Source of the DNA: Patescibacteria group bacterium
GTDB taxonomy: Bacteria > Patescibacteriota > Minisyncoccia > Phycocordibacterales > JACOZG01
Assembly (NCBI GenBank): GCA_034658935.1
Contig: JAYEGE010000010.1
Location: 3,903 to 67,902 of the forward strand
Length of the DNA stretch: 64,000 nucleotides
Direction: 5' to 3'
The stretch's first letter is position 1. Every line of letters begins with the position of its first letter. Shown one piece after another: positions 6,969 to 31,523 of this stretch. The position numbers and the translations under genes are program-made. The notes under the pieces were generated by a model, which saw only the letters and a list, made by a program, of their open reading frames with translations, was not told the origin of the DNA and ran no database searches.

Positions 6969-6995
6969 TTGGAGGGAGTTTGGTATATTAGATAA

Positions 6996-15325: not shown

Positions 15326-15347
15326 CCCCAATTCTGAATTTTCTTAA

Positions 15348-15381
15348 ACAATCATCCCCTCCGAGGGGGTGATTTTGTTTT
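15348..15381 (+). terminator. Rho-independent terminator (AATCATCCCCTCCGAGGGGGTGATT plus T-run)
   Basis: A GC-rich hairpin followed by TTTTGTTTTT, downstream of the 14306-15325 CDS. Confidence 0.7.
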
Positions 15382-15485
15382 TATCGCTTTATTTGACTCT
15401 GTTTTTCTTCTCTGCTAGTATGTTTCTATGCTTTTAGCGCTAGCTTTTTGAGCGAAATTAAAATTAATAACTAAAAATTAGTAAT

Positions 15486-16691: not shown

Positions 16692-16720
16692 CCTCTGTAA
16701 TAAAGTCACAATCAAGGAAC

Positions 16721-17083
16721 ATGTCAGCCACAGCCACTAAAACTAAGAAAGCATCCAGTAAGGCCGATATGACTGATTTCCAGAAGATGAGGATTCGAGT
16801 CTCGGCCTATGAGTCGAAGATTCTAGACGCTAGTGTTAAGCAAATCGTCGATACTGCCATTCGTTACGAGGGCACTCTTCACGGGCCAGTACCTTTGCCA
16901 ACTGAAGTAAAGAAGTACACGGTCAATCGCAGCTCCTTTGTTCACAAAAATGCTCGGGAACAATTCGAGATGAGGACTCATAAGCGCTTGATCGACATTC
17001 TTAATCCTAGCGCTAAGATTATCGAGAGTCTAACTAACCTAACTCTACCGTCGGGGGTCAATATTGACGTCAAGCTAATGTAG
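16721..17083 (+). CDS. rpsJ: 30S ribosomal protein S10. The true start is probably an internal Met near 16769-16787.
   Basis: MRIRVSAYESKILD matches S10 QRIRIRLKAFDHRLID. The ORF has an N-terminal extension relative to the ~102-aa norm. Confidence 0.88.
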   Translation: MSATATKTKKASSKADMTDFQKMRIRVSAYESKILDASVKQIVDTAIRYEGTLHGPVPLPTEVKKYTVNRSSFVHKNAREQFEMRTHKRLIDILNPSAKIIESLTNLTLPSGVNIDVKLM

Positions 17084-17114
17084 CTGTTAGCTTCTGACTT
17101 ACAGCTTTCAGCTT

Positions 17115-17732
17115 ATGAAATTTATCTTGGGTAAAAAAGAGGGTATGACGCAAGTCTTCGACGGAGAAGGCCAGGTTTGGCCTGCGACCGTTTTCACTGT
17201 CAGCCCGGCGACTATTACTCAGCTGAAGACAGTCAAGAGGGATGGATACGATGCCCTGCAATTAGGCTTTGGTGAGCATCGCGTTAAGCATGTTGCCAAG
17301 TCGCAGCAGGGTCACTTCAAGAAGGTAGGAGATACCTTATTTCGTCACTTGCGCGAGGCGCAGGTGGACGAAGGCTCTGAAGCCAAGGTTGGTGATCAAT
17401 TTGGCGTAGGCGATATGTTCGCTGAGGGCGATATGGTGACCGTCTCTGGTGTTTCGAAGGGGAAAGGCTTCCAGGGGGTGGTAAAGCGCCATGGTTTTCA
17501 TGGTGGGCCACGATCTCATGGCCAGAAACATACTGAGCGGGCCCCAGGTTCCATAGGCGGGGGCATGGCTAGGGTGATCAGGGGTCGGCGTATGCCTGGT
17601 CGTATGGGTGCCGATAGGGTGACGGTTAAGAATCTCATAGTTCTTCAGATTGATAAGGATAATGATCGTCTATTGATCTCGGGAGCGGTCCCAGGGCGGA
17701 GAGGGACCATGGTAGAAATAGCGGGTAAATAA
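17115..17732 (+). CDS. rplC: 50S ribosomal protein L3
   Basis: L3 family sequence; position after rpsJ. Confidence 0.93.
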   Translation: MKFILGKKEGMTQVFDGEGQVWPATVFTVSPATITQLKTVKRDGYDALQLGFGEHRVKHVAKSQQGHFKKVGDTLFRHLREAQVDEGSEAKVGDQFGVGDMFAEGDMVTVSGVSKGKGFQGVVKRHGFHGGPRSHGQKHTERAPGSIGGGMARVIRGRRMPGRMGADRVTVKNLIVLQIDKDNDRLLISGAVPGRRGTMVEIAGK

Positions 17733-17733
17733 T

Positions 17734-18438
17734 ATGGAAACTACTGTCTATAACCAAGAGGGTAAAGAAACTGGCAAGGTCACACTACCTGAGCAGCTTT
17801 TTGGTCTACCTTGGAATTCAGATTTGGTCCACCAGGTTGTGGTAGGGATGCAGGCTAATCTCCGGACCAATACCGCCGTGGCCAAGGGCCGTGGAGTGGT
17901 TCGTGGCGGCGGCCGTAAGCCCTGGCGGCAGAAGGGGACGGGTCGGGCCAGGCATGGTTCTATTCGTTCTCCATTATGGCGTGGCGGCGGTGTCACCCAC
18001 GGCCCAACTGCCGAACGTGATTATCACCAGAAGATTAATCACAAGATGCGCAACAAAGCTCTATTGACTGTTTTGTCACAAAAACAACGTGACGGAGAGC
18101 TTGTCTTTGTTGACCGACTTGAGATCACCGCCCCTAAGACTGGTATGGCCCAACAAGCAGTTAATAAGCTTGGTCGGGCTACTGGTCACAAGAGTTTAAC
18201 TTATCGAAATGGTAAGCGAGTTCTTTTTCTGGTTCCCCAATCTGGCGAGGCTTTGACCAAAAGTTTTCACAATTTGCCTGGCGCGGCAATTGAGGAGGTT
18301 CGTAATTTGAATCCTCTTAATGCTTTGACTTATCAGTATCTGATCTTTGCTGACCCAGAATCTGGCTTACCGGTTCTAGAGAGCCGAGCAGGTTTAAATG
18401 AGATTAAGTCTGAGACTAAAGTTAAGGCCAAATCTTAA
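17734..18438 (+). CDS. rplD: 50S ribosomal protein L4
   Basis: L4 family; S10 operon order. Confidence 0.9.
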   Translation: METTVYNQEGKETGKVTLPEQLFGLPWNSDLVHQVVVGMQANLRTNTAVAKGRGVVRGGGRKPWRQKGTGRARHGSIRSPLWRGGGVTHGPTAERDYHQKINHKMRNKALLTVLSQKQRDGELVFVDRLEITAPKTGMAQQAVNKLGRATGHKSLTYRNGKRVLFLVPQSGEALTKSFHNLPGAAIEEVRNLNPLNALTYQYLIFADPESGLPVLESRAGLNEIKSETKVKAKS

Positions 18439-18440
18439 TC

Positions 18441-18740
18441 ATGTCTACCCTCGGCCATCAAACTCAATCGGTTCTCGATGTCTTGGTTAGTCCCTATATT
18501 ACCGAGAAAGCGTCCCGGGCTTCATCTGTGGCCTTCCCTGTCTATACCTTCAAGGTGGCCCCGCGGGCGACTAAGCCGATGGTGATCCAGGCGATTAAGG
18601 AGAAATATAAAGTGACTCCGATCAAGGTCAACATGATCAATTTGCATCCCAAGAAGAAGAGGATTCGTGGTCGGATTGGTTACACTTCGGCAGTCCGCAA
18701 GGCACTTGTTTATCTTAAGTCGGGAGATAAGATCGAGTAA
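18441..18740 (+). CDS. rplW: 50S ribosomal protein L23
   Basis: L23 family; operon order. Confidence 0.88.
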   Translation: MSTLGHQTQSVLDVLVSPYITEKASRASSVAFPVYTFKVAPRATKPMVIQAIKEKYKVTPIKVNMINLHPKKKRIRGRIGYTSAVRKALVYLKSGDKIE

Positions 18741-18749
18741 CAATTCAAT

Positions 18750-19592
18750 ATGAAAAAGTTCAAACCAACTTCCCCTGGTCGACGGCAAATGTCGGTTGTT
18801 TCCTATCGCGGAGTTTTAACTACTGATAAGCCACATAAGTCTCTGACCAAGGGCATCAAACGTCGGGCTGGTCGCAATAATGCTGGCCGGATCACTACTC
18901 GACATCAAGGAGGCGGACACAAGCGACGTTATCGTCAGATTGATTTTCTCTACAATAAGACTGATGTTCCCGCTAAAATTGAGACTATTGAGTACGATCC
19001 TAACCGCAGTGGTTTTATCGGCATAGCTCTCTATGCTGATGGCGAGCGGCGTTATGTGCTCTTGCCGGCCGGTCTCAAGGTCGGAGACAAGTTTATTGTT
19101 TCGACTGAGGCGGAATTGCGCCCCGGCAATCGTCTTCCTTTGAAAAAAATCCCAGTAGGTACCTTTGTCTATAATATTGAATTGCAGGCTCGTGGTGGCT
19201 CTAAGTTGGTTCGTTCGGCAGGTACCTTAGCGCAAGTTTTGTCTAATGACGCCGGTTATACCAATATTAAATTGCCTTCTACTGAGGTCCGAAAGGTCAA
19301 CGAGAATGCCTGGGCGACCATTGGCGCTGTCTCTAATTCAGAGTGGAAATTAACCAACCTCGGTAAGGCTGGTCGTTCTCGATGGCTCGGTATTCGTCCC
19401 ACAGTCCGAGGATCAGCGATGAATCCGGTAGACCATCGTCACGGTGGCGGTGAGGGGCGTCAGGGTATTGGCTTGCGCCGTGGGCCAGTCACGCCTTGGG
19501 GTAAGCAGGCGCTCGGCGTCAAAACCCGCCGACCTAAGAAGTATTCCAATGTATTCAGGGTTTCTCGTCGCAAAACCGGCAAAAAGCGCTAA
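18750..19592 (+). CDS. rplB: 50S ribosomal protein L2
   Basis: Contains GRNNAGRITTRHQGGGHKR and the C-terminal GGGEGR motif. Confidence 0.95.
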   Translation: MKKFKPTSPGRRQMSVVSYRGVLTTDKPHKSLTKGIKRRAGRNNAGRITTRHQGGGHKRRYRQIDFLYNKTDVPAKIETIEYDPNRSGFIGIALYADGERRYVLLPAGLKVGDKFIVSTEAELRPGNRLPLKKIPVGTFVYNIELQARGGSKLVRSAGTLAQVLSNDAGYTNIKLPSTEVRKVNENAWATIGAVSNSEWKLTNLGKAGRSRWLGIRPTVRGSAMNPVDHRHGGGEGRQGIGLRRGPVTPWGKQALGVKTRRPKKYSNVFRVSRRKTGKKR

Positions 19593-19718
19593 TTTGACCT
19601 GTTGTCCAGTTTTTGTTAGTCTAGACGCACGCTCAGCGGGCTCAGCGGATGGTCAGGCCGGCCCCGACGCTTCGGCTGGGGTCTGTATTTTTCTTCAGCT
19701 TTCTATCATTTTGTAATC

Positions 19719-20069
19719 ATGTCACGCTCTAGTCACAAAGGGCCCTATGTTGACCCCCGACTAATTAAGAAAATCGACGGCAAGAAGCCTGGCGATTTGG
19801 ATATGGTCAAAACTTGGTCGCGGAGTAGTACGATCAGCCCCGAAATGGTCGGATTTCGTTTTGGTGTCCACAATGGCAAGGACCATATTGAGGTCTTAGT
19901 AAATGAGGACATGGTCGGTCATAAATTAGGTGAGTTCTCTCCAACCCGTAAATTTTTCCGTCATGGCGGTAAGATGCAGAAGGAATTGGAGCAGAAGAAG
20001 AAAGAAGTTGAGATCGCCGCCGCCCAGTCTGCTAAAGCGGCAGCGTCTGATGCTGGTAAGAAGAAATAG
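19719..20069 (+). CDS. rpsS: 30S ribosomal protein S19 with a Lys/Glu/Ala-rich C-terminal extension
   Basis: Contains [17 protein letters not shown] and HNGKDHIEV. Confidence 0.9.
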
Positions 20070-20095
20070 TCTGACTACGCTCGCTACAAATAATT

Positions 20096-20446
20096 ATGAA
20101 AGCTGAATTAAAAAATTATCGTCAATCTCCCCGCAAGGTGCGCCTGGTAGCAGATTTAATCAAAGGCCAAACGGTGCCGGCGGCATTGGAGCAATTAGAT
20201 TTTCTCGCCAAGCGGGCGGCCGGGCCTATTTCTAAGTTACTCAAATCGGCAGTGGCTAATGCCAAGGAGGGAGATAAAGACCAAAAAGACAAGAAGAATA
20301 GCAAGAAGGATGTCTTGGTGGTTGGCAATATCCGAGTTGATCAGGGGGCAACCCTAAGGCGCTCCCGACCACGGGCGCGTGGATCGGCCTATCGTATTAA
20401 TAAGCGGACTAGTCATGTCCAGGTCACCCTGGAACGCAAGTTCTAA
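20096..20446 (+). CDS. rplV: 50S ribosomal protein L22
   Basis: L22 family; operon order. Confidence 0.9.
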   Translation: MKAELKNYRQSPRKVRLVADLIKGQTVPAALEQLDFLAKRAAGPISKLLKSAVANAKEGDKDQKDKKNSKKDVLVVGNIRVDQGATLRRSRPRARGSAYRINKRTSHVQVTLERKF

Positions 20447-20465
20447 TCTGAGTTTTTATTTTATT

Positions 20466-21140
20466 ATGTCTCACAGCGTCCACCCATATGCTCACCGCCT
20501 AGGAATAATCCGTGATTGGCAATCGCGCTGGTTTGCTCGTTCCGGTTCGGGCGAGTATCAAAAATGGCTCCGGGCAGATGTGCTGTTGCGGGAGTGGCTG
20601 TCTAAACGCCTCCGCGGTAATTTTGTTAAAGCGATAGAGATTGAGCGCGGTGCTACTCATATGCGTGTGATCGTCAAGACTTCTCGTCCGGGTATGGTTA
20701 TTGGCCGCAACGGGGAGAATAGCCAAAAATTACGCCAAGACATTGTCCATTTTTGGCAACAGCGGAAAATCGATCCACCCCAGGAGCTAAAATTAGACAT
20801 TGAAGAAGTTAAGAATCCAGAGTCGCATGCTCAGATTGCTGGCCAGATGATTGTTGAGGGGCTGGAGCGACGCTTCCCCTTTAAGCGAGCCGCCCGACAG
20901 GTAATAGAGAAGGTAATGGCCAATAAAAATGTTCAGGGAGTGAAAGTAACCCTCTCTGGCCGTCTGGGGGGGGCAGAGATGAGTCGCTCGGAGTCCTTCA
21001 AGAAGGGTAATTTACCTCTTCAAACTCTGCGTGCCGACCTAGACTTTGCCAAGGAGACCGCCTATTTGCCTTATGGTGTTATTGGCGTTAAGGTCTGGAT
21101 CTATCGGGGTGAGGTCTTCGGTAAAGAAACCAAAAGTTAA
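20466..21140 (+). CDS. rpsC: 30S ribosomal protein S3
   Basis: MSHSVHPYAHRLGIIRDWQSRWFA matches the S3 N-terminus. The start was trimmed to the internal Met of the 20379 ORF. Confidence 0.9.
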   Translation: MSHSVHPYAHRLGIIRDWQSRWFARSGSGEYQKWLRADVLLREWLSKRLRGNFVKAIEIERGATHMRVIVKTSRPGMVIGRNGENSQKLRQDIVHFWQQRKIDPPQELKLDIEEVKNPESHAQIAGQMIVEGLERRFPFKRAARQVIEKVMANKNVQGVKVTLSGRLGGAEMSRSESFKKGNLPLQTLRADLDFAKETAYLPYGVIGVKVWIYRGEVFGKETKS

Positions 21141-21227
21141 AATGTCAAAATTCAAATTACAAATGTCAAAAGTGGGACGAGCAAATTTTTTGAAATTTGA
21201 GCTTTGTAATTTGTAATTACCTTAATC
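21141..21227. repeat. Ribosomal-operon intergenic repeat, copy A (~87 nt; AATGTCAAA x2 ... AATTTTTTGAAATTTGNGCTTTGTAATTTG)
   Basis: Aligned by eye to the copies at 22868-22963 and 26141-26239. CAAATTACAAA can hairpin with TTTGTAATTTG. Confidence 0.8.
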
Positions 21228-21653
21228 ATGTTATTTCCCAAAAAAGTTAAATACCGCAAGTGGCAGACTCTACGCCACAACCCCAATAAGCCCAAGGTTG
21301 AAAGTCGGGGGCTACGCTTAGCTTTCGGCTCTTTTGGGATTAAGGCCGTTACCCCTGGTCGGATTCGGTCGAACCAAATCGAGGCTGCCCGTAAGGCAAT
21401 TGTTCGGGAGATTAGTAAGACCGGTAAATTATGGATCCGGATCTTCCCTGACAAGCCTTATACTAGCAAAGCGGCAGAGATTCCCATGGGCTCCGGTAAG
21501 GGTGACCCCCAGGGTTACGAAATGATCGTTTGGCCAGGCCGAATGATTTTCGAGCTTGATGGGGTAGAGGAGGCATTAGCTCGCGAAGCTCTGCGTAAAG
21601 GGGGAGCGAAATTGCCAGTTAAGACCAAACTTATTAGCCGAACGGAGGCTTAA
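21228..21653 (+). CDS. rplP: 50S ribosomal protein L16
   Basis: Starts MLFPKKVKYRKWQ. Confidence 0.93.
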   Translation: MLFPKKVKYRKWQTLRHNPNKPKVESRGLRLAFGSFGIKAVTPGRIRSNQIEAARKAIVREISKTGKLWIRIFPDKPYTSKAAEIPMGSGKGDPQGYEMIVWPGRMIFELDGVEEALAREALRKGGAKLPVKTKLISRTEA

Positions 21654-21662
21654 TCTAAGCTT

Positions 21663-21872
21663 ATGTCTGAAACAACTCAATGGAAAAATAAAAGCAGAGA
21701 GGAGTTGCTTAAGGCGTTGACCGAAAAGCGGGATGCTTGGAGGGCCATCCGTTTCGGCGCTACCGGCAGTAAGTCAGCTGACGTTAAGGCGGTGAAGAAT
21801 TTGCGCCGAGAGATCGCCAGCATCATGGCCCGTCTTGCTGACGAATCCGGGCAGGCCACTCAAGTAAGTTAA
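21663..21872 (+). CDS. rpmC: 50S ribosomal protein L29
   Basis: L29 family; operon order. Confidence 0.85.
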   Translation: MSETTQWKNKSREELLKALTEKRDAWRAIRFGATGSKSADVKAVKNLRREIASIMARLADESGQATQVS

Positions 21873-21882
21873 TTTATTTATT

Positions 21883-22155
21883 ATGGCAACCAAAACCAAC
21901 AACTCAACTTCTGATCCCAGACGCCAAGTTCTTCAAGGTGTGGTAGTTTCTGCCAAGATACCAAAGACAATAGTGGTGGAGGTCGAGCGTTATTTCAAAC
22001 ACGCCAAATACGACAAGTATATTCGCCGCTCTAAGCGTTATTTGGCCCATGATGAAGCTGATCACCAGGTTGGGGATCAGGTCTCTATCGGGGTATGTCG
22101 CCCGCTGTCTAAACGGAAGCATTTCATGGTTCTCCGCGATACCACCAAAAGCTAA
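21883..22155 (+). CDS. rpsQ: 30S ribosomal protein S17
   Basis: S17 OB-fold sequence with a C-terminal CRPLSKRK. Confidence 0.9.
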   Translation: MATKTNNSTSDPRRQVLQGVVVSAKIPKTIVVEVERYFKHAKYDKYIRRSKRYLAHDEADHQVGDQVSIGVCRPLSKRKHFMVLRDTTKS

Positions 22156-22163
22156 AAGTTATT

Positions 22164-22544
22164 ATGATTCAGCCTCAATCCATTGTTAAGATTGCTGACA
22201 ACACCGGCGCCAAGTTGGGGCGGGTATTTAAGGTGCTTGGCTCTTCTAAGAAACGTTATGCTGAAATTGGCGAGTTGGTTATCCTCTCGGTCCAGAGTGC
22301 CGAGCCACGCAAGTCAGTTAAAAAGAAAGAGATCTGCCGGGCTTTAGTGATTCGACAGAAGAAGCCCCTTCGTCGAGCTGATGGTTCGTATGTCCGTTTT
22401 GATGAGAATGCGGTGGTTATATTAGAGGCTTCAGGCAAGGACGCGAAAGAACCTAAGGGGGGTCGCATCTTCGGCCCTATCCCACGAGAGATCAGCGAAT
22501 TAGGGTATCAAAAGATTGTTTCTCTGGCACCAGAAGTCGTATGA
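22164..22544 (+). CDS. rplN: 50S ribosomal protein L14
   Basis: Starts MIQPQSIVKIADNTGAK. Confidence 0.95.
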   Translation: MIQPQSIVKIADNTGAKLGRVFKVLGSSKKRYAEIGELVILSVQSAEPRKSVKKKEICRALVIRQKKPLRRADGSYVRFDENAVVILEASGKDAKEPKGGRIFGPIPREISELGYQKIVSLAPEVV

Positions 22545-22867
22545 AAATCAAAAAAGGCGACAATGTAATAGTAATTGCTGGTAAGGACAAGGGCCGTCAG
22601 GGCAAAGTTCTTCGGGCTCTCCCGGCCAGGGCGGAGGGCGGTTTTCATCTGGATAAATTGATTGTAGAGGGGGTAAATATACAGAAGCAACGCCAACGAC
22701 CAAAGCGTAGCGGTCAAAAAGGTCAGACTATCCAGGCGCCGGCACCTTTAGCCGCCTCTAATGTTCTACTCCACTGCTCTGCTTGTAAGAGAGGGGTGAG
22801 AACTGGAAGTAAGATAACGGGCAAAAAGAAAACAAGGGTTTGTCGTCAATGCGGAAAAGGAATATAA
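22541..22867 (+). CDS. rplX: 50S ribosomal protein L24 with a C-terminal CxxC...CxxC zinc-ribbon tail
   Basis: MKIKKGDNVIVIAGKDKGRQGKV (KOW domain). The C-terminus is CSACKRGVRTGSKITGKKKTRVCRQCGK. Confidence 0.88.
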   Translation: MKIKKGDNVIVIAGKDKGRQGKVLRALPARAEGGFHLDKLIVEGVNIQKQRQRPKRSGQKGQTIQAPAPLAASNVLLHCSACKRGVRTGSKITGKKKTRVCRQCGKGI

Positions 22868-22963
22868 ACGATAATGTCAAAACTCAAATTACAAATAACA
22901 AAAAGAGGTCGGACGATCGAATTTTTTGAAATTTGGACTTTGTAATTTGAACTTTCAACTACC
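22868..22963. repeat. Ribosomal-operon intergenic repeat, copy B
   Basis: See copy A. It shares the 3' core AATTTTTTGAAATTTGGACTTTGTAATTTG. Confidence 0.8.
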
Positions 22964-23497
22964 ATGTCTATTACCAAAGAAAAATTAGATAAAAGTTTGT
23001 CGCAACTGAAGTCGGAACTTAATGAGACCAACTTGTTGGCTTTGCCTCGTCTGACTAAAATCGTAGTCAACACTGGTCTGGGCCGCAATAGGGATAAAAA
23101 GCATCTAGAATTAGTTACTGATAGGCTCGCAAAGATCACTGGACAAAAAGTATCTACTCGCGGAGCCAAGAAGTCAGTTGCTTCCTTTAAGGTTCGCGAA
23201 GGAGATATCATCGGGGCGGCCGTGACGTTGCGGGGCGGTCAGATGTGGGGTTTTCTCGACAAATTGCTCAATGTGGCTATTCCAAGGATTCGGGACTTTC
23301 GTGGTTTTGAGATCAAGAGCATTGATGATGTCGGCAATTTATCGATTGGTATTAAAGAGCATACGATTTTCCCAGAGACCGCTGATGAGGACTTGAAAGA
23401 TGTTTTTGGGATGACGATTACTCTGGCCACCACTGCCGGAGACAAGAAGGTTGCTCAGGCCTTTTTCCGGGCTATGGGTTTTCCTTTTAAGAAATAA
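22964..23497 (+). CDS. rplE: 50S ribosomal protein L5
   Basis: L5 family; operon order. Confidence 0.93.
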   Translation: MSITKEKLDKSLSQLKSELNETNLLALPRLTKIVVNTGLGRNRDKKHLELVTDRLAKITGQKVSTRGAKKSVASFKVREGDIIGAAVTLRGGQMWGFLDKLLNVAIPRIRDFRGFEIKSIDDVGNLSIGIKEHTIFPETADEDLKDVFGMTITLATTAGDKKVAQAFFRAMGFPFKK

Positions 23498-23587
23498 TTG
23501 GTTATCCACGTCCTCGTTTCCTTTTTTGAGCCCCGGAACTATAATGAGTAGGGGTTTTCTTTTATCATCAGCCTCCGAATAATTAAT

Positions 23588-25162
23588 GTGAAAAAGACTA
23601 TTTTAATAAGTTTAGTTGTTTTGTTGGCGGTAGCAGTATTGTTTGGCTCTATAAATGTGGTCACGGCCCAGGTTATTGGAGGTAAAATCGGTTTTTTAGA
23701 CCAAATAATGAGAAGTTTGGGCTGGGTAATTGGAGACCAAACTGCTCAGGTGGTTAAGAAGGATGACTCTGTACCCAGCTCTAGCGGTGTCGCGCCTGCC
23801 AGTGACGGTGGCGGGGTGGGGGTTACTGTCTCTATCCCTGTCAGCTCTGCATCTATTGGCGGCGGTATAGGCTCGGCTTCTGCGGTTACTTCCGTCTCTA
23901 GTAGCCCTGTCCCATCTGGGGGCAATACTGGCTCTGGTGGAGTCACGGCTAACTCCACCAGCGATGACAACGTTCTCACAAATAATACTGTTGAGGGGAC
24001 ACTCGATGGCAGTGACCATGATTTATCGTGGTATAACCCTAAGACCAAGACTTGGGAGTCTACCTCTAGCCAGAAAGGCGTATTCAAATTTGACGGCAGT
24101 ACGGTTGGCATAGGCTCTGCGCCCACTAGTGCCAGCCTTAGTGTTGCTGCCGCTGGTGGGTCTGTCGCGATTGATGGCCGAAATACCACTGGAACTGCCT
24201 TTATTGGACATAGCGAGGAGGGCGTTGGTATACGAGGGAGTAGTAACGGTTTTTTTAATATATCAGATCCGGCGTCTATCCCATCTGTCGGGGTTTTTGG
24301 TCGGGCAAATTCTGGTGTCGGCTTGTATGGTTTCAGTAATACGGGGGTCGCCGTGAGGGTGGCAGGGGGGGAATTTGGCTTGTACCAACAAGGGTTAAGC
24401 TCGAAGAATTTTTTTGAGGGTAAAGTTGGAATCGGCACTCGAAATCCAGCTACTGAGCTAGATGTTAACGGCAGAATTAGTGTGAGTTCGGATATTGGCA
24501 CTGCCCTATCTGTTCGAGGTCAGGTGGGTATATTTGATGGTACTCAGGGTGCTGGCAAGGTGCTCACCTCTAATTCCGCGGGTTTGGCTTCTTGGCAGAT
24601 GCCCGCTGAGGCTGGCAGTGAGTTCTGGGCCGGCATAGAGGGCGACAATATTTATAATATCAATAGCGGAAATGTCTCTATCGGGGCGGCATCTCGTTCT
24701 TCGGCCAAGCTTTTTGTTACTGCTCATACTAACAACCCAGCGGTCAGAGCGGAGAATAATGGCGGTGGTACCACTCTCCAAATATTAAACGGTGACGGGG
24801 GTGTGGGAATTCAGCAGGTGGGCGGAGACAGGAATTATTTTGAGGGCGATATCGGGATTGGCGTCCAAGATCCCGCTGAACGTCTAGATCTTGGTGGTGG
24901 GAATATCAAAATGGGCCACGAAATAGTGTCTGCTTGGGGTAGTACTACGGGTGGACGTGTTATCAACGTGTTTTGCCCAGAGGACAAGTTTGTGATTGGT
25001 GGGGGTTGTGAGATAACCGATGACAGTGGCTCTACAATATCAATTTCATCTCCCATTGATCTCGCTGAGTCTGCTTCAGGATCAGGTGGCTGGTCGTGTA
25101 AATGGAGCGGTGGTAGGGGAGAAGTTGGGGTCGCCAAAGCCATCTGCGCTAATATTAGGTAA
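23588..25162 (+). CDS. Secreted or membrane-anchored Gly/Ser-rich 524-aa protein inserted in the spc operon. The C-terminus is Cys-rich (CPEDKFVIGGGCEI...WSCKW...CANIR). Start is GTG.
   Basis: N-terminal signal/anchor MKKTILISLVVLLAVAVLF, then long G/S/T-rich low-complexity sequence. No catalytic motifs. Confidence 0.6.
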   Translation: MKKTILISLVVLLAVAVLFGSINVVTAQVIGGKIGFLDQIMRSLGWVIGDQTAQVVKKDDSVPSSSGVAPASDGGGVGVTVSIPVSSASIGGGIGSASAVTSVSSSPVPSGGNTGSGGVTANSTSDDNVLTNNTVEGTLDGSDHDLSWYNPKTKTWESTSSQKGVFKFDGSTVGIGSAPTSASLSVAAAGGSVAIDGRNTTGTAFIGHSEEGVGIRGSSNGFFNISDPASIPSVGVFGRANSGVGLYGFSNTGVAVRVAGGEFGLYQQGLSSKNFFEGKVGIGTRNPATELDVNGRISVSSDIGTALSVRGQVGIFDGTQGAGKVLTSNSAGLASWQMPAEAGSEFWAGIEGDNIYNINSGNVSIGAASRSSAKLFVTAHTNNPAVRAENNGGGTTLQILNGDGGVGIQQVGGDRNYFEGDIGIGVQDPAERLDLGGGNIKMGHEIVSAWGSTTGGRVINVFCPEDKFVIGGGCEITDDSGSTISISSPIDLAESASGSGGWSCKWSGGRGEVGVAKAICANIR

Positions 25163-25193
25163 CGTTAAGCTCTCCGAATAAACAAATAAACCC

Positions 25194-25227
25194 AAAACCA
25201 CCCCGCCTTTGGCGGGGTGGTTTTGGG
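25194..25227 (+). terminator. Rho-independent terminator (CCACCCCGCC-TTTG-GCGGGGTGG plus TTTTGGG)
   Basis: A GC hairpin and T-run ~30 nt after the 23588-25162 stop. Confidence 0.8.
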
Positions 25228-25245
25228 TGTCGCGCGTTGGGGGGA

Positions 25246-25254
25246 TGGTATAAT
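25246..25254 (+). promoter_or_regulatory. Candidate extended -10 promoter TGGTATAAT feeding a ~300-nt leader before rpsZ
   Basis: A perfect TGnTATAAT just downstream of the terminator. No clear -35. Confidence 0.4.
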
Positions 25255-25557
25255 TGAAATAATATGAATAGAGATTCAAAATTGGTCCTAGTTTTAATCG
25301 TATTGTAGGACGATTGCTGATCCCCATACGAAATATTGCTGCTATTACCAGGCCGTCTGTGTGTTTTCCTGGTGTGTAGGTGATATCGAAGCTTACGAGG
25401 CCTGTGACCAGGGCTTTACGAAGCGGTGTTCTCTCTGGTTTGACCTCCTCTCAGTCTTCTGCTAAACTATCAGCTAGCTCTAATTACGGGAGCTGGCTGA
25501 TTTTCCGCCTTATTGGTGGGTCGCTGAAAGGCGATTTCTTTGTCTATATTTGTAAAC

Positions 25558-25743
25558 ATGGCCAAAACCTCAGTAATTGCGCGCTCTCAGAAGCCGCCCA
25601 AATTTAGCACTCGGCTGGTCCGGCGTTGTTTTCGTTGTGGTCGCGGTAAGGCCTATATGCGTGATTTTGGTCTCTGTAGAATTTGCTTTAGGGAATTAGC
25701 CAACGAGGGCCGTATCCCCGGTGTTAAGAAATCATCCTGGTAG
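25558..25743 (+). CDS. rpsZ: 30S ribosomal protein S14 type Z (Zn-binding, 61 aa)
   Basis: [48 protein letters not shown]. The start was trimmed to the internal Met. Confidence 0.9.
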
Positions 25744-25747
25744 GTCT

Positions 25748-26140
25748 ATGTTAATGGATCCTCTAGCTGATATGTTGACAGTAATTAGGAACGCTTCACG
25801 CGCAGGCTTGCCTAGTGCCAGCTTCCCTTTTTCTAACTTTAAATCAGCGGTGGCCGACAAGCTGAAGCGGACTGGCTATCTCAGGTCGGTTACCAATAAA
25901 GGCAAGAAAGTAAAGAAGACGATAGAGGTTGAGTTACTTTATGGAAACGGAGGGCCTAAGATTAAGGAGCTCCGACGTCTGTCTAAGCCCTCATGTCGAG
26001 TCTATCGGCCGATTAAGGCTATCCATTCAGTGCGACAGGGTTATGGGTCTGCTTTCTACTCGACTTCTAGCGGGATACTCACTGATAAGGAGGCGAGGGA
26101 GGCTAAGATTGGCGGAGAGCTATTATTTAGAATTTGGTAA
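25748..26140 (+). CDS. rpsH: 30S ribosomal protein S8
   Basis: MLMDPLADMLTVIRNA matches the S8 N-terminus. The start was trimmed. Confidence 0.9.
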   Translation: MLMDPLADMLTVIRNASRAGLPSASFPFSNFKSAVADKLKRTGYLRSVTNKGKKVKKTIEVELLYGNGGPKIKELRRLSKPSCRVYRPIKAIHSVRQGYGSAFYSTSSGILTDKEAREAKIGGELLFRIW

Positions 26141-26239
26141 TCTTAGAAAATGTCAAAGTCCAAAAACCAAATGTCAAAGGAGGGTCAAATGATTAAATTT
26201 TTTGAAATTTGGGCTTTGTAATTTGGATTTATTGAATAT
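26141..26239. repeat. Ribosomal-operon intergenic repeat, copy C
   Basis: See copy A. Contains AATGTCAAAG x2 and AATTTTTTGAAATTTGGGCTTTGTAATTTG. Confidence 0.8.
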
Positions 26240-26782
26240 ATGTCACGAATTGGCAAACAAGCAATCATGATTCCCGATAAGGTGGAATGTTACCAAGAAG
26301 GCGAATCTATTACGGTAAAAGGGCCCCTGGGGACAGTGGCCAAGACTTTTCGTGATGACGTCAATATTTTGATTGCGGCTAATAATGTTACCCTGACCCC
26401 CAAGCGGATGACCGCTGGTGGGCGAGCTCTTTGGGGCACTTATGCTTCTCATATTCGGAATATGATCCAAGGTGTCACCGCTGGTTATGAGAAGAAATTA
26501 ATTATCGAGGGAGTGGGTTTCAAGGTGGCTATGGCGGGGACGAAGCTAACCTTCAATCTAGGCTGGTCTCATTCGCGAGACCTTGAAATTCCCAAGGATC
26601 TCAAAGTCAATGTTGAGAAAAACTCAATTACCGTTAGCGGAGTGAATAAGGAATCGGTCGGCCAATTTGCGGCCAAGATTAGAGCTCTGAAGAAGCCTGA
26701 GCCGTATCAGGGCAAAGGTATCCGTTATTCAGATGAGGTTGTGCGTCGCAAGGCTGGCAAGAAAGCCACTGTTGCTGCTTAA
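26240..26782 (+). CDS. rplF: 50S ribosomal protein L6
   Basis: Starts [15 protein letters not shown]. Confidence 0.93.
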
Positions 26783-26786
26783 GATT

Positions 26787-27143
26787 ATGAATAAACAAAC
26801 CAAAATCGATAATAGGCAACGTCGTCACCGTCGAGTACGGGCGAAAGTGACAGGTACGGCCCAGCGGCCTCGCTTGTCTGTCTTCCGATCGAGTAAATAT
26901 ATTTATGCCCAGATTGTTGATGATGGTGCTGGTCGGACCTTGGTCGCCGCTAATGATCTTAAGTCGGCCACTAGGCAGTCGCTAGCCAAGACTGATAGCG
27001 CCAAGGCGGTCGGTCAAGTTGTAGCCGAGCTGGCTTTAGCTAAGAAGATCAAACAAGTATCGTTTGACCGCGGGGGTTACCTTTATACTGGTCGAGTTAG
27101 GGCTTTGGCCGAAGCGGCTCGGGCTGGCGGCCTGCAATTTTAA
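26787..27143 (+). CDS. rplR: 50S ribosomal protein L18
   Basis: Contains [33 protein letters not shown]. The start was trimmed to the internal Met. Confidence 0.9.
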
Positions 27144-27149
27144 ATAATC

Positions 27150-27701
27150 ATGCCTACTCCGAGTAATCACTCTAATAACGCAAGGGGAAATGGTCCTGCC
27201 GGTGCTAACCGGCCTGGGGGCGGTCGCCGTACAATGCGCCCGCGACGAGGTCCTCGGCCCGAGCGTCCTAAGCCTGAGTATGACCAGGAAGTGCTCGATG
27301 TTCGCCGAGTGGCTCGAGTGATGCGTGGTGGTAAGCGTTTCCGCTTTCTAATTATTATGGCAATCGGCAATCGTCGCGGTAAAGTTGGTGTGGGTACGGG
27401 TAAGGGGGCCGATATCTCCTTGGCGATGGAGAAGGCGGCGCGTGATGCCAAGAAGCACCTCGTTGAATTAAAGCTCACCAAGGGCATGTCTTTGCCTCAC
27501 GAGCTTAGTGCTAAACATTGCAGCTCTCGAGTTATAATGCGACCAGCTCGTGGACGTGGTTTAGCTGCTGGCTCAGCGGTGCGAACGGTATTGACTCTGG
27601 CGGGCGTGCAGGATGTTAGTGCCAAGATTCAATCGAAAAGTAAGAATAAGCTTAATAATGCCCGCGCCGCCATGGCCGCCCTATCTCAGGTCCGAGTCTA
27701 G
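27150..27701 (+). CDS. rpsE: 30S ribosomal protein S5 with an Arg/Gly/Pro-rich N-terminal extension
   Basis: VLDVRRVARVMRGGKRFRF core; the dsRBD-like S5 domain. Confidence 0.9.
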   Translation: MPTPSNHSNNARGNGPAGANRPGGGRRTMRPRRGPRPERPKPEYDQEVLDVRRVARVMRGGKRFRFLIIMAIGNRRGKVGVGTGKGADISLAMEKAARDAKKHLVELKLTKGMSLPHELSAKHCSSRVIMRPARGRGLAAGSAVRTVLTLAGVQDVSAKIQSKSKNKLNNARAAMAALSQVRV

Positions 27702-27704
27702 CTT

Positions 27705-28136
27705 ATGCAACTTCATAATTTAAAACGACGTACCCCTCTCAAGAAAGCTCGCCGTGTTGCTCGTGGTGGTAAGCGTGGTAAGACTGCTGGTCGGGGGACT
27801 AAGGGACAGAAGTCTCGAGCCGGACACCATATTCGTCCAGAGGCGAGGGATAGGATCAAGAAATTACCTAAACAACGTGGTTACCGATTCAATTCCTTTC
27901 AAGTCAAACCAGCGGTGCTTAATTTGGAAGATCTAGAAAGGGCCTTTAAGGCTGGTGAGCAGGTGAGCCCACAGAATCTGCTCGAGCGTGGCCTGGTTAC
28001 TAAACGTGGGGGCCGCTTACCTGCCGTCAAATTGCTCGGCAATGGCGCTCTGAAAAAGTCACTCAAGGTCGCGGGCTGCCAATATTCCACCACTGCCAAG
28101 GAGAAGATTGAGGCGGCTGGCGGCAGTCTGGAATAA
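27705..28136 (+). CDS. rplO: 50S ribosomal protein L15 (follows rpsE directly, with no L30 gene)
   Basis: Starts MQLHNLKRRTPLKKARRVARGG...GRGTKGQKSR. Confidence 0.9.
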   Translation: MQLHNLKRRTPLKKARRVARGGKRGKTAGRGTKGQKSRAGHHIRPEARDRIKKLPKQRGYRFNSFQVKPAVLNLEDLERAFKAGEQVSPQNLLERGLVTKRGGRLPAVKLLGNGALKKSLKVAGCQYSTTAKEKIEAAGGSLE

Positions 28137-28143
28137 TTAAGTC

Positions 28144-29418
28144 ATGATTGCTAATTTCTTCAGTAAAATAAGGATCATCATTACAGACCCTAGTCTGCGT
28201 CGTCGGGTCTTGTTTGTTTTGATTATTTTAGCCCTATTTCGCCTCGGGTCCTCGGTGCCTATCCCTGGGGTAGATGAGGCGGCTTTGGCCAGGTTCTTTA
28301 GTGGTAATCAATTCTTTGGCTTGCTTAACGTTTTCTCGGGTGGCGGCTTGGCCAATCTGTCTATTTTAATGCTTGGCGTCGGTCCTTATATTACCGCTTC
28401 GATTGTGATGCAGCTTCTGACCATTATGTTCCCGTCTTTGAAGCGTATTTACCATGAGGAAGGTGAAGCTGGCCGTCGTAAATTTATTCAATACTCTCGA
28501 CTCCTGACGATCCCCCTGGCGATTATTCAGGGTTTCGGTCTGTTGGCCTTGTTGGAGAATCAAGGGGTGATTGTTCATTTGACTATGCTGGCCCGCCTAT
28601 TCAATGTCGTGACTGTTGTGGCCGGTTCGGTTCTTTTGATGTGGTTGGGTGAATTGGTTAGTGAGTATGGTATAGGCAATGGCGTCTCGATGATCATTAT
28701 GGCCGGCATTTTAGCGAGTATGCCTGCCGCCGCTGGCTCTATATTGGTCAATTTCGATGCTGGGCAATTACCGATCTATATAGCTTCCTTGGTGGCAATC
28801 GTGGCCATTGTCGCTGGGGTGGTGGTGATAACGGAGGCGGAAAGACCGGTGCCGGTAACCTATGCCAAACGGGTGCGAGGCAATAAGATCTATGGTGGCA
28901 TGTCTACTTACTTACCAATCAGGCTTAATCAAGCCGGCGTGATGCCTATCATCTTCGCCCTCTCTATTCTCCTTTTCCCCCAGATGATTGCCACCCTCTT
29001 AACGCGTTTTGATAATGCCATCATTACTGGTGTCTCTGATTTTGTTCTAGCTGTTTTAAATAATAGTTGGCTTTATGCCGCGATCTACTTTGTGCTGGTC
29101 TTTGCTTTCACCTTCTTCTACTCAGCGATTACCTTTGACCCAGAGTCGATGTCGGAAAATTTGCAGAAGAGTGGCGCCTTCATTCCCGGGATTCGCCCCG
29201 GTCGGACCACTGCTGCTTATATCGCTAAGATTCTCTACCGCTTAACCTTTATCGGGGCCCTTTTCCTTGGTGTAGTGGCGATGCTCCCACTTATTATGCA
29301 GGCGATTACCGGCATTGCCGCTTTGGCCATTGGTGGTACCGCTCTCCTGATTGTTGTCTCGGTTATTCTCGAGTTTGACAAGCAAATCGAAGGCCAACTT
29401 TCGATGCGCGAGTACTAA
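28144..29418 (+). CDS. secY: Preprotein translocase SecY
   Basis: 10-TM protein, 424 aa; position after rplO. Confidence 0.95.
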   Translation: MIANFFSKIRIIITDPSLRRRVLFVLIILALFRLGSSVPIPGVDEAALARFFSGNQFFGLLNVFSGGGLANLSILMLGVGPYITASIVMQLLTIMFPSLKRIYHEEGEAGRRKFIQYSRLLTIPLAIIQGFGLLALLENQGVIVHLTMLARLFNVVTVVAGSVLLMWLGELVSEYGIGNGVSMIIMAGILASMPAAAGSILVNFDAGQLPIYIASLVAIVAIVAGVVVITEAERPVPVTYAKRVRGNKIYGGMSTYLPIRLNQAGVMPIIFALSILLFPQMIATLLTRFDNAIITGVSDFVLAVLNNSWLYAAIYFVLVFAFTFFYSAITFDPESMSENLQKSGAFIPGIRPGRTTAAYIAKILYRLTFIGALFLGVVAMLPLIMQAITGIAALAIGGTALLIVVSVILEFDKQIEGQLSMREY

Positions 29419-29420
29419 GG

Positions 29421-29446
29421 TTGGACACTAAATGTCTTGGTGTTAG
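29421..29446. repeat. Degenerate copy of the TTGGACAC element (TTGGACACTAAATGTCTTGGTGTTAG)
   Basis: Read directly. Its right half overlaps the candidate extended -10. Confidence 0.5.
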
Positions 29447-29449
29447 AAT
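29441..29449 (+). promoter_or_regulatory. Candidate extended -10 (TGTTAGAAT) placed for a leaderless transcript of the 29456 ORF
   Basis: TGnTAGAAT ends 7 nt before the ATG at 29456. Confidence 0.35.
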
Positions 29450-29455
29450 GGGCCC

Positions 29456-29659
29456 ATGTCTAACATGGAATTTAATCCTGACGATAAGGATTTTTATAGT
29501 GATCTGCGTCAGCGAGCTGCTGCTCCTCGAGGTGGTCTAATGGGTTGGTTTATGAGGGTGCTGGGGACCGATAGCGAAAGCAAGGCCAATGGGGTGATGC
29601 TGGCAGTGGCCGTTTTGTTTTTCCTGGCTTCCATTATTATTTTTTGGCGTTTCCTGTAA
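29456..29659 (+). CDS. Small hypothetical protein with a C-terminal transmembrane helix
   Basis: A 67-aa ORF between secY and adk. The C-terminus is MLAVAVLFFLASIIIFW. Possibly leaderless. Confidence 0.35.
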   Translation: MSNMEFNPDDKDFYSDLRQRAAAPRGGLMGWFMRVLGTDSESKANGVMLAVAVLFFLASIIIFWRFL

Positions 29660-29665
29660 TCAATC

Positions 29666-30259
29666 ATGACTGATCTAAAGGCCTGTGTTTTCATCGGTCG
29701 CCCTGGTAGTGGTAAGGGTACCCAATCTCAAAGTTTGATTGAGAAATTAAAAGTAACAAAACCTGTTCGGCCAATTATTTATGTAGAGACTGGGAGCCTT
29801 TTCCGTGAGTTTATGAAAGGCGATTCTTATACCCAGCGATTAGTCAGGGAAGCTCTAGAGAAAGGGGAGAGGTTGCAGGATTTCTTGGCGATCTGGAATT
29901 GGACCAATAAGTTAATAAAGGAGATGACTGGGCAAGAGCATATAATCTTTGATGGGGCGCCTCGATCCTTACTTGAGGCACAGATAGTTAGCACTATGGC
30001 GAAGCAATACTCTCTTCCTGAACCGACTATTGTTTATATCAACGTTAGCCGTGAATGGGCCAAGGCTCGACTTTTGGCTCGCGGTCGGGTCGATGACCAT
30101 GATGAGGGAATCAATAACCGGCTTGGTTGGTTTGACCGCGATGTCGCTCCGGCGGTGACCTATTTCCGAGAGCAAAGCGACTTCCGCTTTCTCGATATTA
30201 ATGGCGAGCAACCAATTGAACGAGTTAGTGCCGATATCTGGAGTGGACTGGGATTATGA
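29666..30259 (+). CDS. adk: Adenylate kinase
   Basis: Contains GRPGSGKGTQ (P-loop) and lid-region Arg residues. Confidence 0.9.
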   Translation: MTDLKACVFIGRPGSGKGTQSQSLIEKLKVTKPVRPIIYVETGSLFREFMKGDSYTQRLVREALEKGERLQDFLAIWNWTNKLIKEMTGQEHIIFDGAPRSLLEAQIVSTMAKQYSLPEPTIVYINVSREWAKARLLARGRVDDHDEGINNRLGWFDRDVAPAVTYFREQSDFRFLDINGEQPIERVSADIWSGLGL

Positions 30260-31020
30260 TTAGCCTGAAGACTCCTAAACAAATAAATATCCTGCGAGAG
30301 GGTGGCCGTCGTCTGGCGACAATTTTGCAAACCGTGGGCGAGCGGGTTAAACCTGGGGTAACTCCACTTGAACTTGACGCTATGGCCCGTGACTTAATCA
30401 AGCAAGGTGGAGATGAGCCCTCCTTCCTAAATTATCGACCGGCTGGAGCGTCTGGGCCATACCCGGCCGCTTTATGTGTATCGGTCAACGAATCTATTGT
30501 CCATGGCATTCCTGATAAGCGGTCCCTGCAGGAGGGGGATATTGTTGGCATTGACCTCGGGCTTAAGCATAAGGGTCTCTATACTGATATGGCAATGACT
30601 GTGTCGGTGGGGGAGCTTAAACCAGAGCTCAAGCGACTCCTCGCTCATACCAAGGAGGGGTTGAGGGCGGGTATTGCTCAAAGCAAAGTGGGCAATCATT
30701 TGGGTGATATCGGGGCAGCCATTGAGGCCGTTGCCGAGAAACATGGCTATGGCGTGGTCCGAGAGCTAGCTGGCCACGGGGTGGGCCTAAAGGTCCATGA
30801 GGAGCCAGAGGTGCCCAATTATGGCCAAGTTGGGACGGGTCTTAAGCTCAAGGCTGGTATAGTTATTGCTATTGAGCCGATGTTCAATCTTGGGGCGGCC
30901 GATGTGGTTTTTCACGACGATGGCTATACGGTTACCACCAAGGATAAATTACCTTCGGCTCATTTCGAACACACAGTGTTGGTGACTGAGAGTGGTGGTG
31001 AGGTGCTGACTCGCTCCTGA
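30256..31020 (+). CDS. map: Methionine aminopeptidase type I
   Basis: Pita-bread fold metal ligands (D..D..H..E..E); 254 aa; follows adk. Confidence 0.93.
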   Translation: MISLKTPKQINILREGGRRLATILQTVGERVKPGVTPLELDAMARDLIKQGGDEPSFLNYRPAGASGPYPAALCVSVNESIVHGIPDKRSLQEGDIVGIDLGLKHKGLYTDMAMTVSVGELKPELKRLLAHTKEGLRAGIAQSKVGNHLGDIGAAIEAVAEKHGYGVVRELAGHGVGLKVHEEPEVPNYGQVGTGLKLKAGIVIAIEPMFNLGAADVVFHDDGYTVTTKDKLPSAHFEHTVLVTESGGEVLTRS

Positions 31021-31188
31021 TCTGTTAAACTATTAGTAACCCCATGTCTAATTTTGAAACAATGCCGGGTGGCGACACCAAACTCAGCCCTGAGCAAGCT
31101 CTGGCCGCTCTCGATGAGCAGACTCGCTTGATTGTGGCCGAGGAGGCTAGTCATCCTCTCCACGAAACACTAGAGATTTTGCAGCAGC

Positions 31189-31509: not shown

Positions 31510-31523
31510 GTTATAATTAATTA

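Follow-up and report, generated by a model that had tools for sequence, protein, structure and literature searches.

Background

Few gene arrays are as tightly packed and as strongly conserved as ribosomal-protein (r-protein) operons, whose stop-start junctions are thought to enforce equal output of the parts of the ribosome. Here we describe three related elements that fill the spacers before rplP, rplE and rplF in such an array, on a 64,000-nucleotide (nt) stretch from a Patescibacteria group bacterium (assembly GCA_034658935.1, contig JAYEGE010000010.1, positions 3,903 to 67,902 of the forward strand), the whole of which is called the window and is numbered from its first letter. A first reading of this DNA, made from the letters alone and referred to below as the sequence-only reading, had noticed the elements and had offered three explanations for them, namely regulatory RNA bound by r-proteins, internal promoters, or a small MITE (miniature transposable element with inverted repeats). 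Our analysis favours the last of these in a modified form. We assign a probability of about 0.55 to the three elements being diverged copies of one small, non-coding, AT-rich insertional repeat that inserted precisely at the rplP, rplE and rplF start codons, and the same value to this repeat being a MITE-like passenger, a heptamer-derived palindrome tolerated through its U-rich core and possibly through a relay open reading frame (ORF).

Amongst the described systems, the Correia (CREE), ERIC, RUP and Nezha MITEs are shorter than 200 bp, carry no transposase and have arms that fold into long RNA stem-loops (Delihas 2011, PMC3184786). They are intergenic, operons included, leave empty sites in relatives, may carry ATG codons or ORFs and affect expression, and promoters are known from Correia and REP2 repeats (PMC3184786). 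As many as 97.4% of MITE clusters are reported to be genus-specific (PMC11602168). The present elements resemble this class, whose members are under about 400 bp, in their length of 87-99 nt, in having no transposase gene but only ORFs of 23-24 codons, and in that the orthologous sites are empty in relatives; their internal 7-nt periodicity, however, is not a MITE feature.

Heptamer repeats form a second group for comparison. Direct repeats of TAACTGA are found in marine Beggiatoaceae and also in cyanobacteria and some Bacteroidetes (MacGregor 2015, PMC4679880), where a translational role with S1, Csp or Csr as binders has been proposed (PMC4679880). They share with the present elements the 7-nt unit, the intergenic location and the forward orientation directly before start codons in place of a Shine-Dalgarno (SD) site; they likewise occur inside r-protein operons (before fusA, L3, S4, S1 and S21; PMC4679880) and have a patchy phylogenetic spread with no evident mechanism of mobility (PMC4679880). 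However, the TAACTGA repeats are simple direct arrays of identical units, with one inverted case noted, whereas the elements described here are palindromic with CAAA/TTTG alone constant, and they are paralogous copies with common non-periodic parts and a 30-nt core, of unrelated sequence. Similarly, the STRR-type heptamers of cyanobacteria such as Nostoc PCC 7120 form arrays near start codons or promoters, and their effects on transcription or translation have experimental support (bioRxiv 10.1101/2022.06.06.494920), but these are direct tandem arrays of other sequences at high copy number throughout the genome and not palindromic insertions at stop-start junctions.

The REP/BIME repeats are also palindromes in transcribed intercistronic spacers and can affect mRNA stability and translation when near a stop codon (PMC3733652). 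REPs are nevertheless 20-40 nt long, GC-rich, marked by a GTAG/CGTC tag and mobilised by RAYT proteins, none of which applies to the present elements. Considering regulation by r-proteins themselves, the known operators include one for S8 at the start of rplE in the Escherichia coli spc operon and one for L4 on the S10 leader, and one of the three elements does lie directly upstream of rplE. Unlike such an operator, however, one and the same element stands here before three different genes, is not kept in relatives and belongs to a family found beside unrelated genes and a tRNA.

Three copies of one element in the ribosomal-protein operon

The + strand of the window carries an S10-spc-type cluster that encodes EF-Tu, S10, L3, L4, L23, L2, S19, L22, S3, L16, L29, S17, L14, L24 and L5, followed by S14, S8, L6, L18, S5, L15 and SecY, and these gene identities match the Pfam labels of identical genes in another stretch, L040. 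Three of its junctions are occupied on the + strand by an element that takes up the entire spacer: copy A (21141-21227, 87 nt) between rpsC and rplP (S3/L16), copy B (22868-22963, 96 nt) between rplX and rplE (L24/L5), and copy C (26141-26239, 99 nt) between rpsH and rplF (S8/L6). Each copy ends in a U-rich core of 30 nt, built of TTTGNNN heptamers, and a short tail. The core lies at 21184-21213 in copy A, at 22920-22949 in copy B and at 26196-26225 in copy C, all on the + strand, and the start codons that follow are at 21228 (rplP), 22964 (rplE) and 26240 (rplF).

A search with the core AATTTTTTGAAATTTGRGCTTTGTAATTTG, in which up to three mismatches were allowed, gave three matches in the 64 kb, all on the + strand and with 0-1 mismatch, and none in 100 shuffles. 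The 5' unit AATGTCAAA occurs five times in the window against 0.57 expected, every time within the three elements. A repeat finder places the three elements in one family. When the copies were made into a covariance model and the window was scanned without filters, they scored 100.3 (A), 105.5 (B) and 101.7 bits (C), the next match in the window being unrelated and scoring 19.5 bits. The same model detected no additional copy in about 12.5 kb of other sequence from this genome, for which 27 kb of Logan contigs were searched. Over 6426 nt, copies A and B included, the window is 100% identical to an independent Logan assembly from this sample, so that the observation is not an artefact of assembly. 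The GC content of the elements is 26-29%, as against 48% for the window.

The sequence-only reading had placed related elements in these three spacers, and its coordinates hold in all details, as does its nearly identical 30-nt 3' core, which was found nowhere else in the 64 kb. As to the duplicated 5' unit, AATGTCAAA is doubled in copies A and C, whereas the second unit of copy B is AATAACAAA.

Heptamer anatomy, conservation and folding

On examination of the three copies, a common layout of (NNNCAAA)x4, a G-rich centre, (TTTGNNN)x4 and a 14-nt tail was observed. In copy A the 5' arm of NNNCAAA heptamers spans 21141-21172, the centre 21173-21183 and the tail 21214-21227. Copy B opens with a native-like spacer of 6 nt (22868-22873), followed by the 5' arm (22873-22905), the centre (22906-22919) and, past the core, the tail (22950-22963); copy C opens with a native-like spacer of 9 nt (26141-26149), followed by the 5' arm (26149-26180), a centre that bears GGAGGG (26181-26195) and, past the core, the tail (26226-26239). 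The two halves are thus imperfect inverted repeats that flank the G-rich centre. The heptamer TTTGNNNTTTGNNNTTTG, with at most one mismatch, has 20 matches in the window against 0.6 expected, and 15 of the 20 fall in the three elements, on the - strand within the 5' half and on the + strand within the 3' half. Self-match at a lag of 7 nt is 0.46-0.53, compared with 0.29-0.30 in shuffled sequences, a level that none of 2000 shuffles attained, and an echo is seen at a lag of 14. Only CAAA/TTTG, that is four of the seven heptamer positions, is constant; the units otherwise differ.

Conservation between the copies is concentrated in the core, where 28-29 of 31 positions are identical (90-94%). The 5' arm follows with 23-29 of 33 (70-88%), while the centre (5-8 of 14) and the tail (4-7 of 15) are near random, at about 27-57%; the difference between the core and the rest gives Fisher p values of 0.001-0.04 per copy pair. 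The distance from the end of the core to the ATG is exactly 14 nt in A, B and C, the core thus occupying -44 to -15.

Past the upstream stop each copy also opens a short reading frame on the + strand. The mini-ORF of copy A (21142-21216) has 24 codons and a TAA, with its ATG 1 nt past the rpsC stop and its own stop 11 nt before the rplP ATG; those of copy B (22874-22945) and copy C (26150-26221) have 23 codons and a TAA, begin 6 nt past the rplX stop and 9 nt past the rpsH stop, respectively, and both stop 18 nt before the ATG of rplE or rplF. These distances of 1, 6 and 9 nt resemble native start positions in relatives. The 7-nt periodicity, the 14-nt spacing between core and ATG, and the mini-ORF ATG at the native start position are anatomy that the sequence-only reading had not described. 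The frame of copy A differs in the 3' half yet stays open, and where copy A has an A that would make an in-frame TGA in the other two, copies B and C have a G; copy A reads that A in another frame. In shuffles, such a mini-ORF arises by chance at about 0.08 per copy. Between copies B and C, 9 codons differ nonsynonymously and 3 are synonymous-only, and none of the three peptides has a Pfam match. The translations are exactly those given by the sequence-only reading, frame shift of copy A included, and its preference for a function at the nucleotide level over a peptide agrees with these counts and with the Pfam result.

RNAfold predicts hairpins of -16 to -21 kcal/mol for the sense strand of the window copies, with z scores of only -1.5 to -2.0. 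An outer stem of 12-13 bp, CAAATTACAAA/TTTGTAATTTG, is predicted in A and B, in agreement with the 12-bp stem of the sequence-only reading, and is broken in C, where three bases of the 5' arm are changed and the 3' arm does not compensate. Alternatively, CAAAUNNCAAAA can pair with UUUUGAAAUUUG in an inner helix of 11 pairs, which is paired in 97% of cells across the three copies and is invariant. Both hairpin models are well paired across the copies but invariant, and speak neither for nor against a structure; neither shows covariation, with 1 or 0 pairs changed on both sides, no more than in shuffles, although three sequences give low power. The 3' arm looks conserved as a sequence and not as a pairing partner, since the changes in the 5' arm of copy C are uncompensated and the inner helix is invariant. 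In the folds predicted for A and B, neither the tail nor the ATG is paired, and the centre of copy B forms a short stem followed by U6.

Insertion history in relatives

By L5 protein, the nearest neighbours are Paceibacteria- and Vogelbacteria-like, the closest in the protein collection being 80% identical. The element is absent in five relatives, at every junction examined. The spacer between the L24 and L5 genes is 3 nt in L035 (L5 identity 80%) and 1 nt in L012 (75%), and the two genes overlap in L013 (73%). In L009 (71%) it is 8 nt, as is the S3/L16 spacer, and in L038 (67%) the L24/L5, S3/L16 and S8/L6 spacers are 11, 6 and 9 nt. Given spacers of at most 11 nt, or overlapping genes, in these relatives, the three elements are insertions specific to the lineage of the window.

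The sequence ATGT is repeated at both junctions of copy A, ATGTC at those of copy B and ATGTCA at those of copy C. The ATGT at the junctions may stem from a target duplication of 4 bp or from an element end that imitates its target.

Other junctions of the operon also hold inserted ORFs in relatives. The L5/S14 junction, compared with L009, L012, L013 and L038, is occupied in relatives by unrelated ORFs, namely a ParE-like toxin pair in L009, an ORF of >430 codons in L012 and one of >215 codons in L013, and appears to be an insertion hot spot in this lineage. At the rplB/rpsS junction, L009 has an ORF of 454 codons and L038 a Fic-domain ORF with a small ORF; in the window this spacer (19593-19718, 126 nt) holds a GC-rich hairpin followed by a U-run.

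A wider family in other genomes

The 24-nt form of the core, TTGAAATTTGNNCTTTGTAATTTG, was found to have exact matches in 8 stretches of GTDB species representatives and in 21 metagenome stretches, where the chance expectation for its 22 specified bases is far below one match. The GTDB matches are labelled Patescibacteria, Magasanikbacteria (three), Nitrospirae, Gammaproteobacteria, Bacteroidaceae and Desulfobacteraceae. There were no matches in viral contigs, so no phage vector is evident. The flanks in this family are again CAAA/TTTG heptamers, and at 8 of the 13 other core sites tested AATGTCAAA lies at most 150 nt upstream of the core. Six of those loci (L003, L017, L023, L030, L021 and L008) have ACATT after the core, which gives TTTGACATT, the inverted partner of AATGTCAAA. 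The covariance model detected several copies per contig in L003, L017, L018, L026 and L032-L034, and a 230-nt version with the same two ends stands before different genes in L021, L028 and L030. Locus GC across the family ranges over 31-57%.

Family hairpins are long, with z scores of -5.4 (L002), -5.7 (L005) and -3.35 (L017), and some members (L016, L025, L001 and L006) have a GC-rich, terminator-like stem in the centre. Of 26 copies that could be classified, 19 are flanked by co-oriented ORFs, in many cases only a few nt away on either side; as this is about the genomic baseline for gene pairs, co-orientation is not evidence in itself. The core precedes the start codon by 14-19 nt at several independent loci.

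L002 (7131-7334, - strand), a metagenome-assembled genome labelled Gammaproteobacteria whose locus GC is 39%, offers another instance of the family in a translation operon. Here the 202-nt spacer between rpsG and fusA (S7/EF-G) is filled by a strong hairpin of the family, about 45 bp long (-33.7 kcal/mol, z -5.4), with GGACAA as direct repeats on both flanks. In L001 and L006 the core lies just past rpsI (S9) on the opposite strand. Elsewhere, copies are found upstream of genes for E2, FabF, PurL-like, acyl-CoA-synthetase-like, radical-SAM and small membrane proteins, and in L028 (230-483) heptamer-periodic elements stand on both sides of a tRNA-Gln, with a core that ends 17 nt before the tRNA 5' end. 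Apart from ATGT in copies A, B and C and GGACAA in L002, no consistent duplication was observed in the family.

These members apparently make up a broad and undescribed class of heptamer-periodic palindromic repeats in several phyla, with AATGTCAAA at the 5' end and TTGAAATTTGNNCTTTGTAATTTG at the 3' end, typically between co-oriented genes. No account of this family or its core was found in the searchable literature, which is itself incomplete, and that literature held nothing specific on MITEs in the candidate phyla radiation (CPR). The family is a candidate for a new class of small intergenic repeat that bears the same two-part signature across the labelled phyla and resembles the heptamers of Beggiatoa and cyanobacteria.

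Transcription and translation context

A scan for sigma-70-like promoters over 14000-32000 called 23 sites, none of them inside an element, and no terminator-like site was called within any element. Bacteroidetes-type TAnnTTTG and extended -10 motifs in the elements were also considered by eye and set aside, their spacing being one base off. In a search of the whole window at Rfam gathering thresholds, only tmRNA and one tRNA were reported, the window holding no rRNA, and at E values up to 5 over 19500-26400 only matches at chance level (mir-1006 and PK-repZ) were obtained.

The operon is interrupted between rplE and rpsN by an ORF of 524 codons (23588-25162, + strand) with a signal-peptide-like N-terminus; neither it nor a 67-residue ORF has a Pfam match. 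It is followed by a strong bidirectional terminator (25190-25228) and a TATAAT box at about 25247, which together with the ORF put copy C in a second transcription unit, from rpsN-rpsH-rplF onwards. The region 25163-25557, about 395 nt before rpsN, is non-coding, and the leader of about 270 nt past the TATAAT box folds better than shuffles (z -2.36); its only Rfam match is PK-repZ, below threshold and at chance level. It is possible that the rpsN-rpsH-rplF unit carries an uncharacterised leader.

SD-like motifs (GGAG, GAGG or AGGA at -20 to -4) precede 4 of 42 long ORFs in the window, compared with 13.8% of background 17-mers, and none precedes any gene of the operon; the genome apparently does not use Shine-Dalgarno sites. 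Most genes of the operon are preceded by a TAAT(C)-type sequence. No general upstream motif (TTTGTAAT or TTTTGAAATTTG) was found before other genes of the window.

How the operon may tolerate the elements

From the sequence we infer that the elements are or have been mobile, that they are co-transcribed with the operon and that they play a part in translation. Each insertion would then have replaced a tight stop-start junction by a transcribed spacer of 87-99 nt. Termination-reinitiation is reported to drop by 40-80% at a distance of 14 nt and to be nearly lost at about 20-38 nt (PMC10666635). Across 87-99 nt, simple termination-reinitiation should be abolished, and with its loss the downstream cistrons would need another route to translation.

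Two such routes may be proposed. The U-rich core that ends 14 nt before the ATG, with the unpaired tail behind it, could serve as a landing site for ribosomes independent of SD pairing; S1-dependent U-rich enhancers occupy the same region before the ATG. The other route would be a relay ORF of 23-24 codons, which would start at the position of the old start codon, stop 11-18 nt before the new ATG, retain ribosomes on the message and melt the hairpin. One or both of these probably keep the downstream cistron translated. The three insertions of about 90 nt show that the tight arrangement of an r-protein operon is breakable in a reduced, Shine-Dalgarno-poor genome, and a U-rich module at a fixed distance from the ATG, possibly aided by the relay ORF, may compensate for the broken junctions.

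A bolder proposal, which we regard as tentative and rather doubtful, is that the undescribed cross-phylum family (AATGTCAAA, (NNNCAAA)n, a variable centre, (TTTGNNN)n and a near-invariant U-rich module of 24-30 nt) carries in this module a portable expression signal independent of SD sites. The family would then spread among distant bacteria and insert snugly at gene starts, and the module would, for example, receive S1 or cold-shock proteins as a landing pad or act as a minimal promoter. Through it the repeat could enter even essential operons with tight coupling and leave the host alive, the old start codon becoming the start of the relay ORF. If true, such a signal would help to understand, and to engineer, how translation starts in uncultured CPR bacteria; if the elements are selfish DNA only, they would be an ordinary though neat case of an operon-invading repeat.

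Weighing of the explanations

Several observations weigh against a MITE-like passenger tolerated in the manner proposed. The ATGT duplication has a p of only about 0.05, because it includes the obligatory ATG and about 38% of the genes of the operon have T at +4. The 12-bp inverted repeat of A and B is subterminal and broken in C, and the terminal AATGTCAAA has no inverted partner in the window copies. Whereas a typical MITE is dispersed at high copy number, only three copies are seen over about 76 kb, and these lie together in 5.1 kb of one operon; neither a transposase nor an autonomous partner is visible, and AATGTCAAA is restricted to the elements in the window. The core is also common to several phyla, whereas MITE clusters are mostly genus-specific (PMC11602168). 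As regards translation, gaps of 11-18 nt after the mini-ORF stops would permit partial reinitiation only, the relay ORF is not a trait of the family (it is absent in L002 and ends after 4 codons in L016), and a core before the tRNA in L028 indicates that the family is not specific to translation. Finally, the strong conservation of the core and its invariant 14-nt spacing point to a selected host function and not to a neutral passenger; these two features and the cross-phylum signature leave room for the bolder proposal above. Thus the small MITE is the best supported of the three explanations in the sequence-only reading, but it is to be taken with degenerate terminal inverted repeats, an ambiguous target duplication, a copy number of three and a core that crosses phyla.

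The conservation of the core would also fit elements that have been domesticated as cis-regulatory RNA, a view that we hold to be unlikely on balance. The core of TTTG heptamers would be a candidate platform for a cold-shock protein (one per heptamer), S1 or an r-protein, and it is similarly doubtful, though conceivable, that alternative pairing with the A-rich 5' arm co-tunes the translation of L16, L5 and L6 in response to temperature or upstream translation. The core is far more conserved than the rest and ends 14 nt from the ATG in every copy, the sequence of the 3' arm is conserved rather than its pairing, and all three copies retain the 11-pair inner helix, in which 97% of cells are paired. 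The heptamers AGCTTTG, GGCTTTG and GACTTTG resemble GTCTTTG/T, the consensus of Bacillus CspB (PMC1904285); heptamers before start codons, r-protein operons included, have been proposed as S1, Csp or Csr sites (PMC4679880), and those of Nostoc alter expression (bioRxiv 10.1101/2022.06.06.494920). However, the element is missing from all relatives examined, the module also occurs before a tRNA, past rpsI on the other strand and beside many unrelated genes, and the window hairpins have z scores of only -1.5 to -2.0 and no covariation. In the more specific form suggested by the sequence-only reading, RNA bound by r-proteins, the proposal fails: that reading had itself named short spacers at all three positions in relatives as contrary evidence, and short spacers are what relatives have there, while the RNA has neither an Rfam match nor covariation and the core adjoins unrelated genes in 29 other stretches. 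The element is not an r-protein operator, because it is absent in relatives, generic elsewhere and without Rfam match or covariation. An RNA-processing or stability element is improbable as well. The AU-rich hairpin would here be a site for RNase III, E or Y, a protective stem at a 3' end or a weak attenuator, and the hairpins would segment the long S10-spc transcript and set differential levels, as REP, ERIC and Correia repeats do elsewhere. Such a role is consistent with the long family hairpins (z to -5.7, -34 kcal/mol), the GC-rich terminator-like centre stem of L016, L025, L001 and L006, the position of copies between co-oriented genes, the short stem and U6 in the centre of copy B, and the long RNA stem-loops and the effects on expression that are known of MITEs (PMC3184786). 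It is at odds with the weak hairpins of the window (-16 to -21 kcal/mol, z -1.5 to -2.0), the uncompensated loss of the outer stem in copy C and the lack of any terminator call, and it does not account for sequence conservation in one arm or for the exact 14-nt spacing.

A fixed distance from core to gene, 14 nt here, 14-19 nt before other ORFs and 17 nt before the tRNA, would also be expected if outward-facing TTGAAA and TAATTT hexamers were to start short-leader or leaderless transcripts of rplP, rplE and rplF, and the tRNA case is one that translation cannot explain. The commonest heptamer of the family outside the bait, TTTGACA, contains the -35 consensus, and Correia and REP2 repeats offer a precedent for promoters in repeats (PMC3184786). 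We nevertheless consider internal promoters quite improbable, and the suggestion of the sequence-only reading to this effect found no support: the scan calls no sigma-70-like site in any copy, TTGAAA (-35-like) and TAATTT (-10-like) are only 11 nt apart, the hexamers at proper spacing from TTGAAA (TAATTA, AACTTT and GATTTA) are poor and not conserved, canonical TATAAT boxes are seen elsewhere in the window (about 23531 and 25247), and a promoter is unneeded inside an operon. The element is not a recognisable promoter or terminator, and neither is it a conserved peptide gene. Three paralogous genes for peptides of 23-24 residues would fit the three intact ORFs with ATG starts and the G by which copies B and C avoid an in-frame TGA, but they are highly improbable, considering the 9 nonsynonymous against 3 synonymous-only codons between B and C, the frame-shifted 3' half of copy A and the lack of a Pfam match; moreover, the ORF is not kept in family members elsewhere and its ATG is part of the AATGTCAAA unit of the family.

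Other observations in the window

The window also contains a separate, unrelated palindrome family with TTGGACAC...GTGTCCAA as its basis, as in AATTTGGACACGAAGTGTCCAAATT. Its perfect or near-perfect palindromes occur at at least six sites (6178-6202, 6866-6890, 6925-6970, 38392-38416, 47603-47648 and 55495-55568) and may be terminators or another repeat family. In addition, a perfect palindrome of 29 nt, AACTGTTCAGAGCTCGGCTCTGAACAGTT, occurs twice, at 5773-5801 and 40336-40364, the two being 93% identical.

The ORF at 56770-60447 (622-4299 of L037) encodes a class-I tRNA synthetase of 1225 residues that resembles isoleucyl-tRNA synthetase (IleRS). A precomputed match to His_Phos_1 (histidine phosphatase) lies between its synthetase domain matches and, judged from these domain matches, would be an unusual domain insertion. 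Within the same ORF, the run at 57401-57438 was considered as a fourth copy of the element and rejected, as it consists of CAAAGTT-type heptamers within IleRS coding sequence and lacks a 3' arm. Five successive heptamers of the types CAAAGTT, CAAAGTC and CAAATTT at 57401-57433 encode AKFKVQSPNFK; they are of the same word type as the 5' arm of the elements and are probably due to chance or a remnant.

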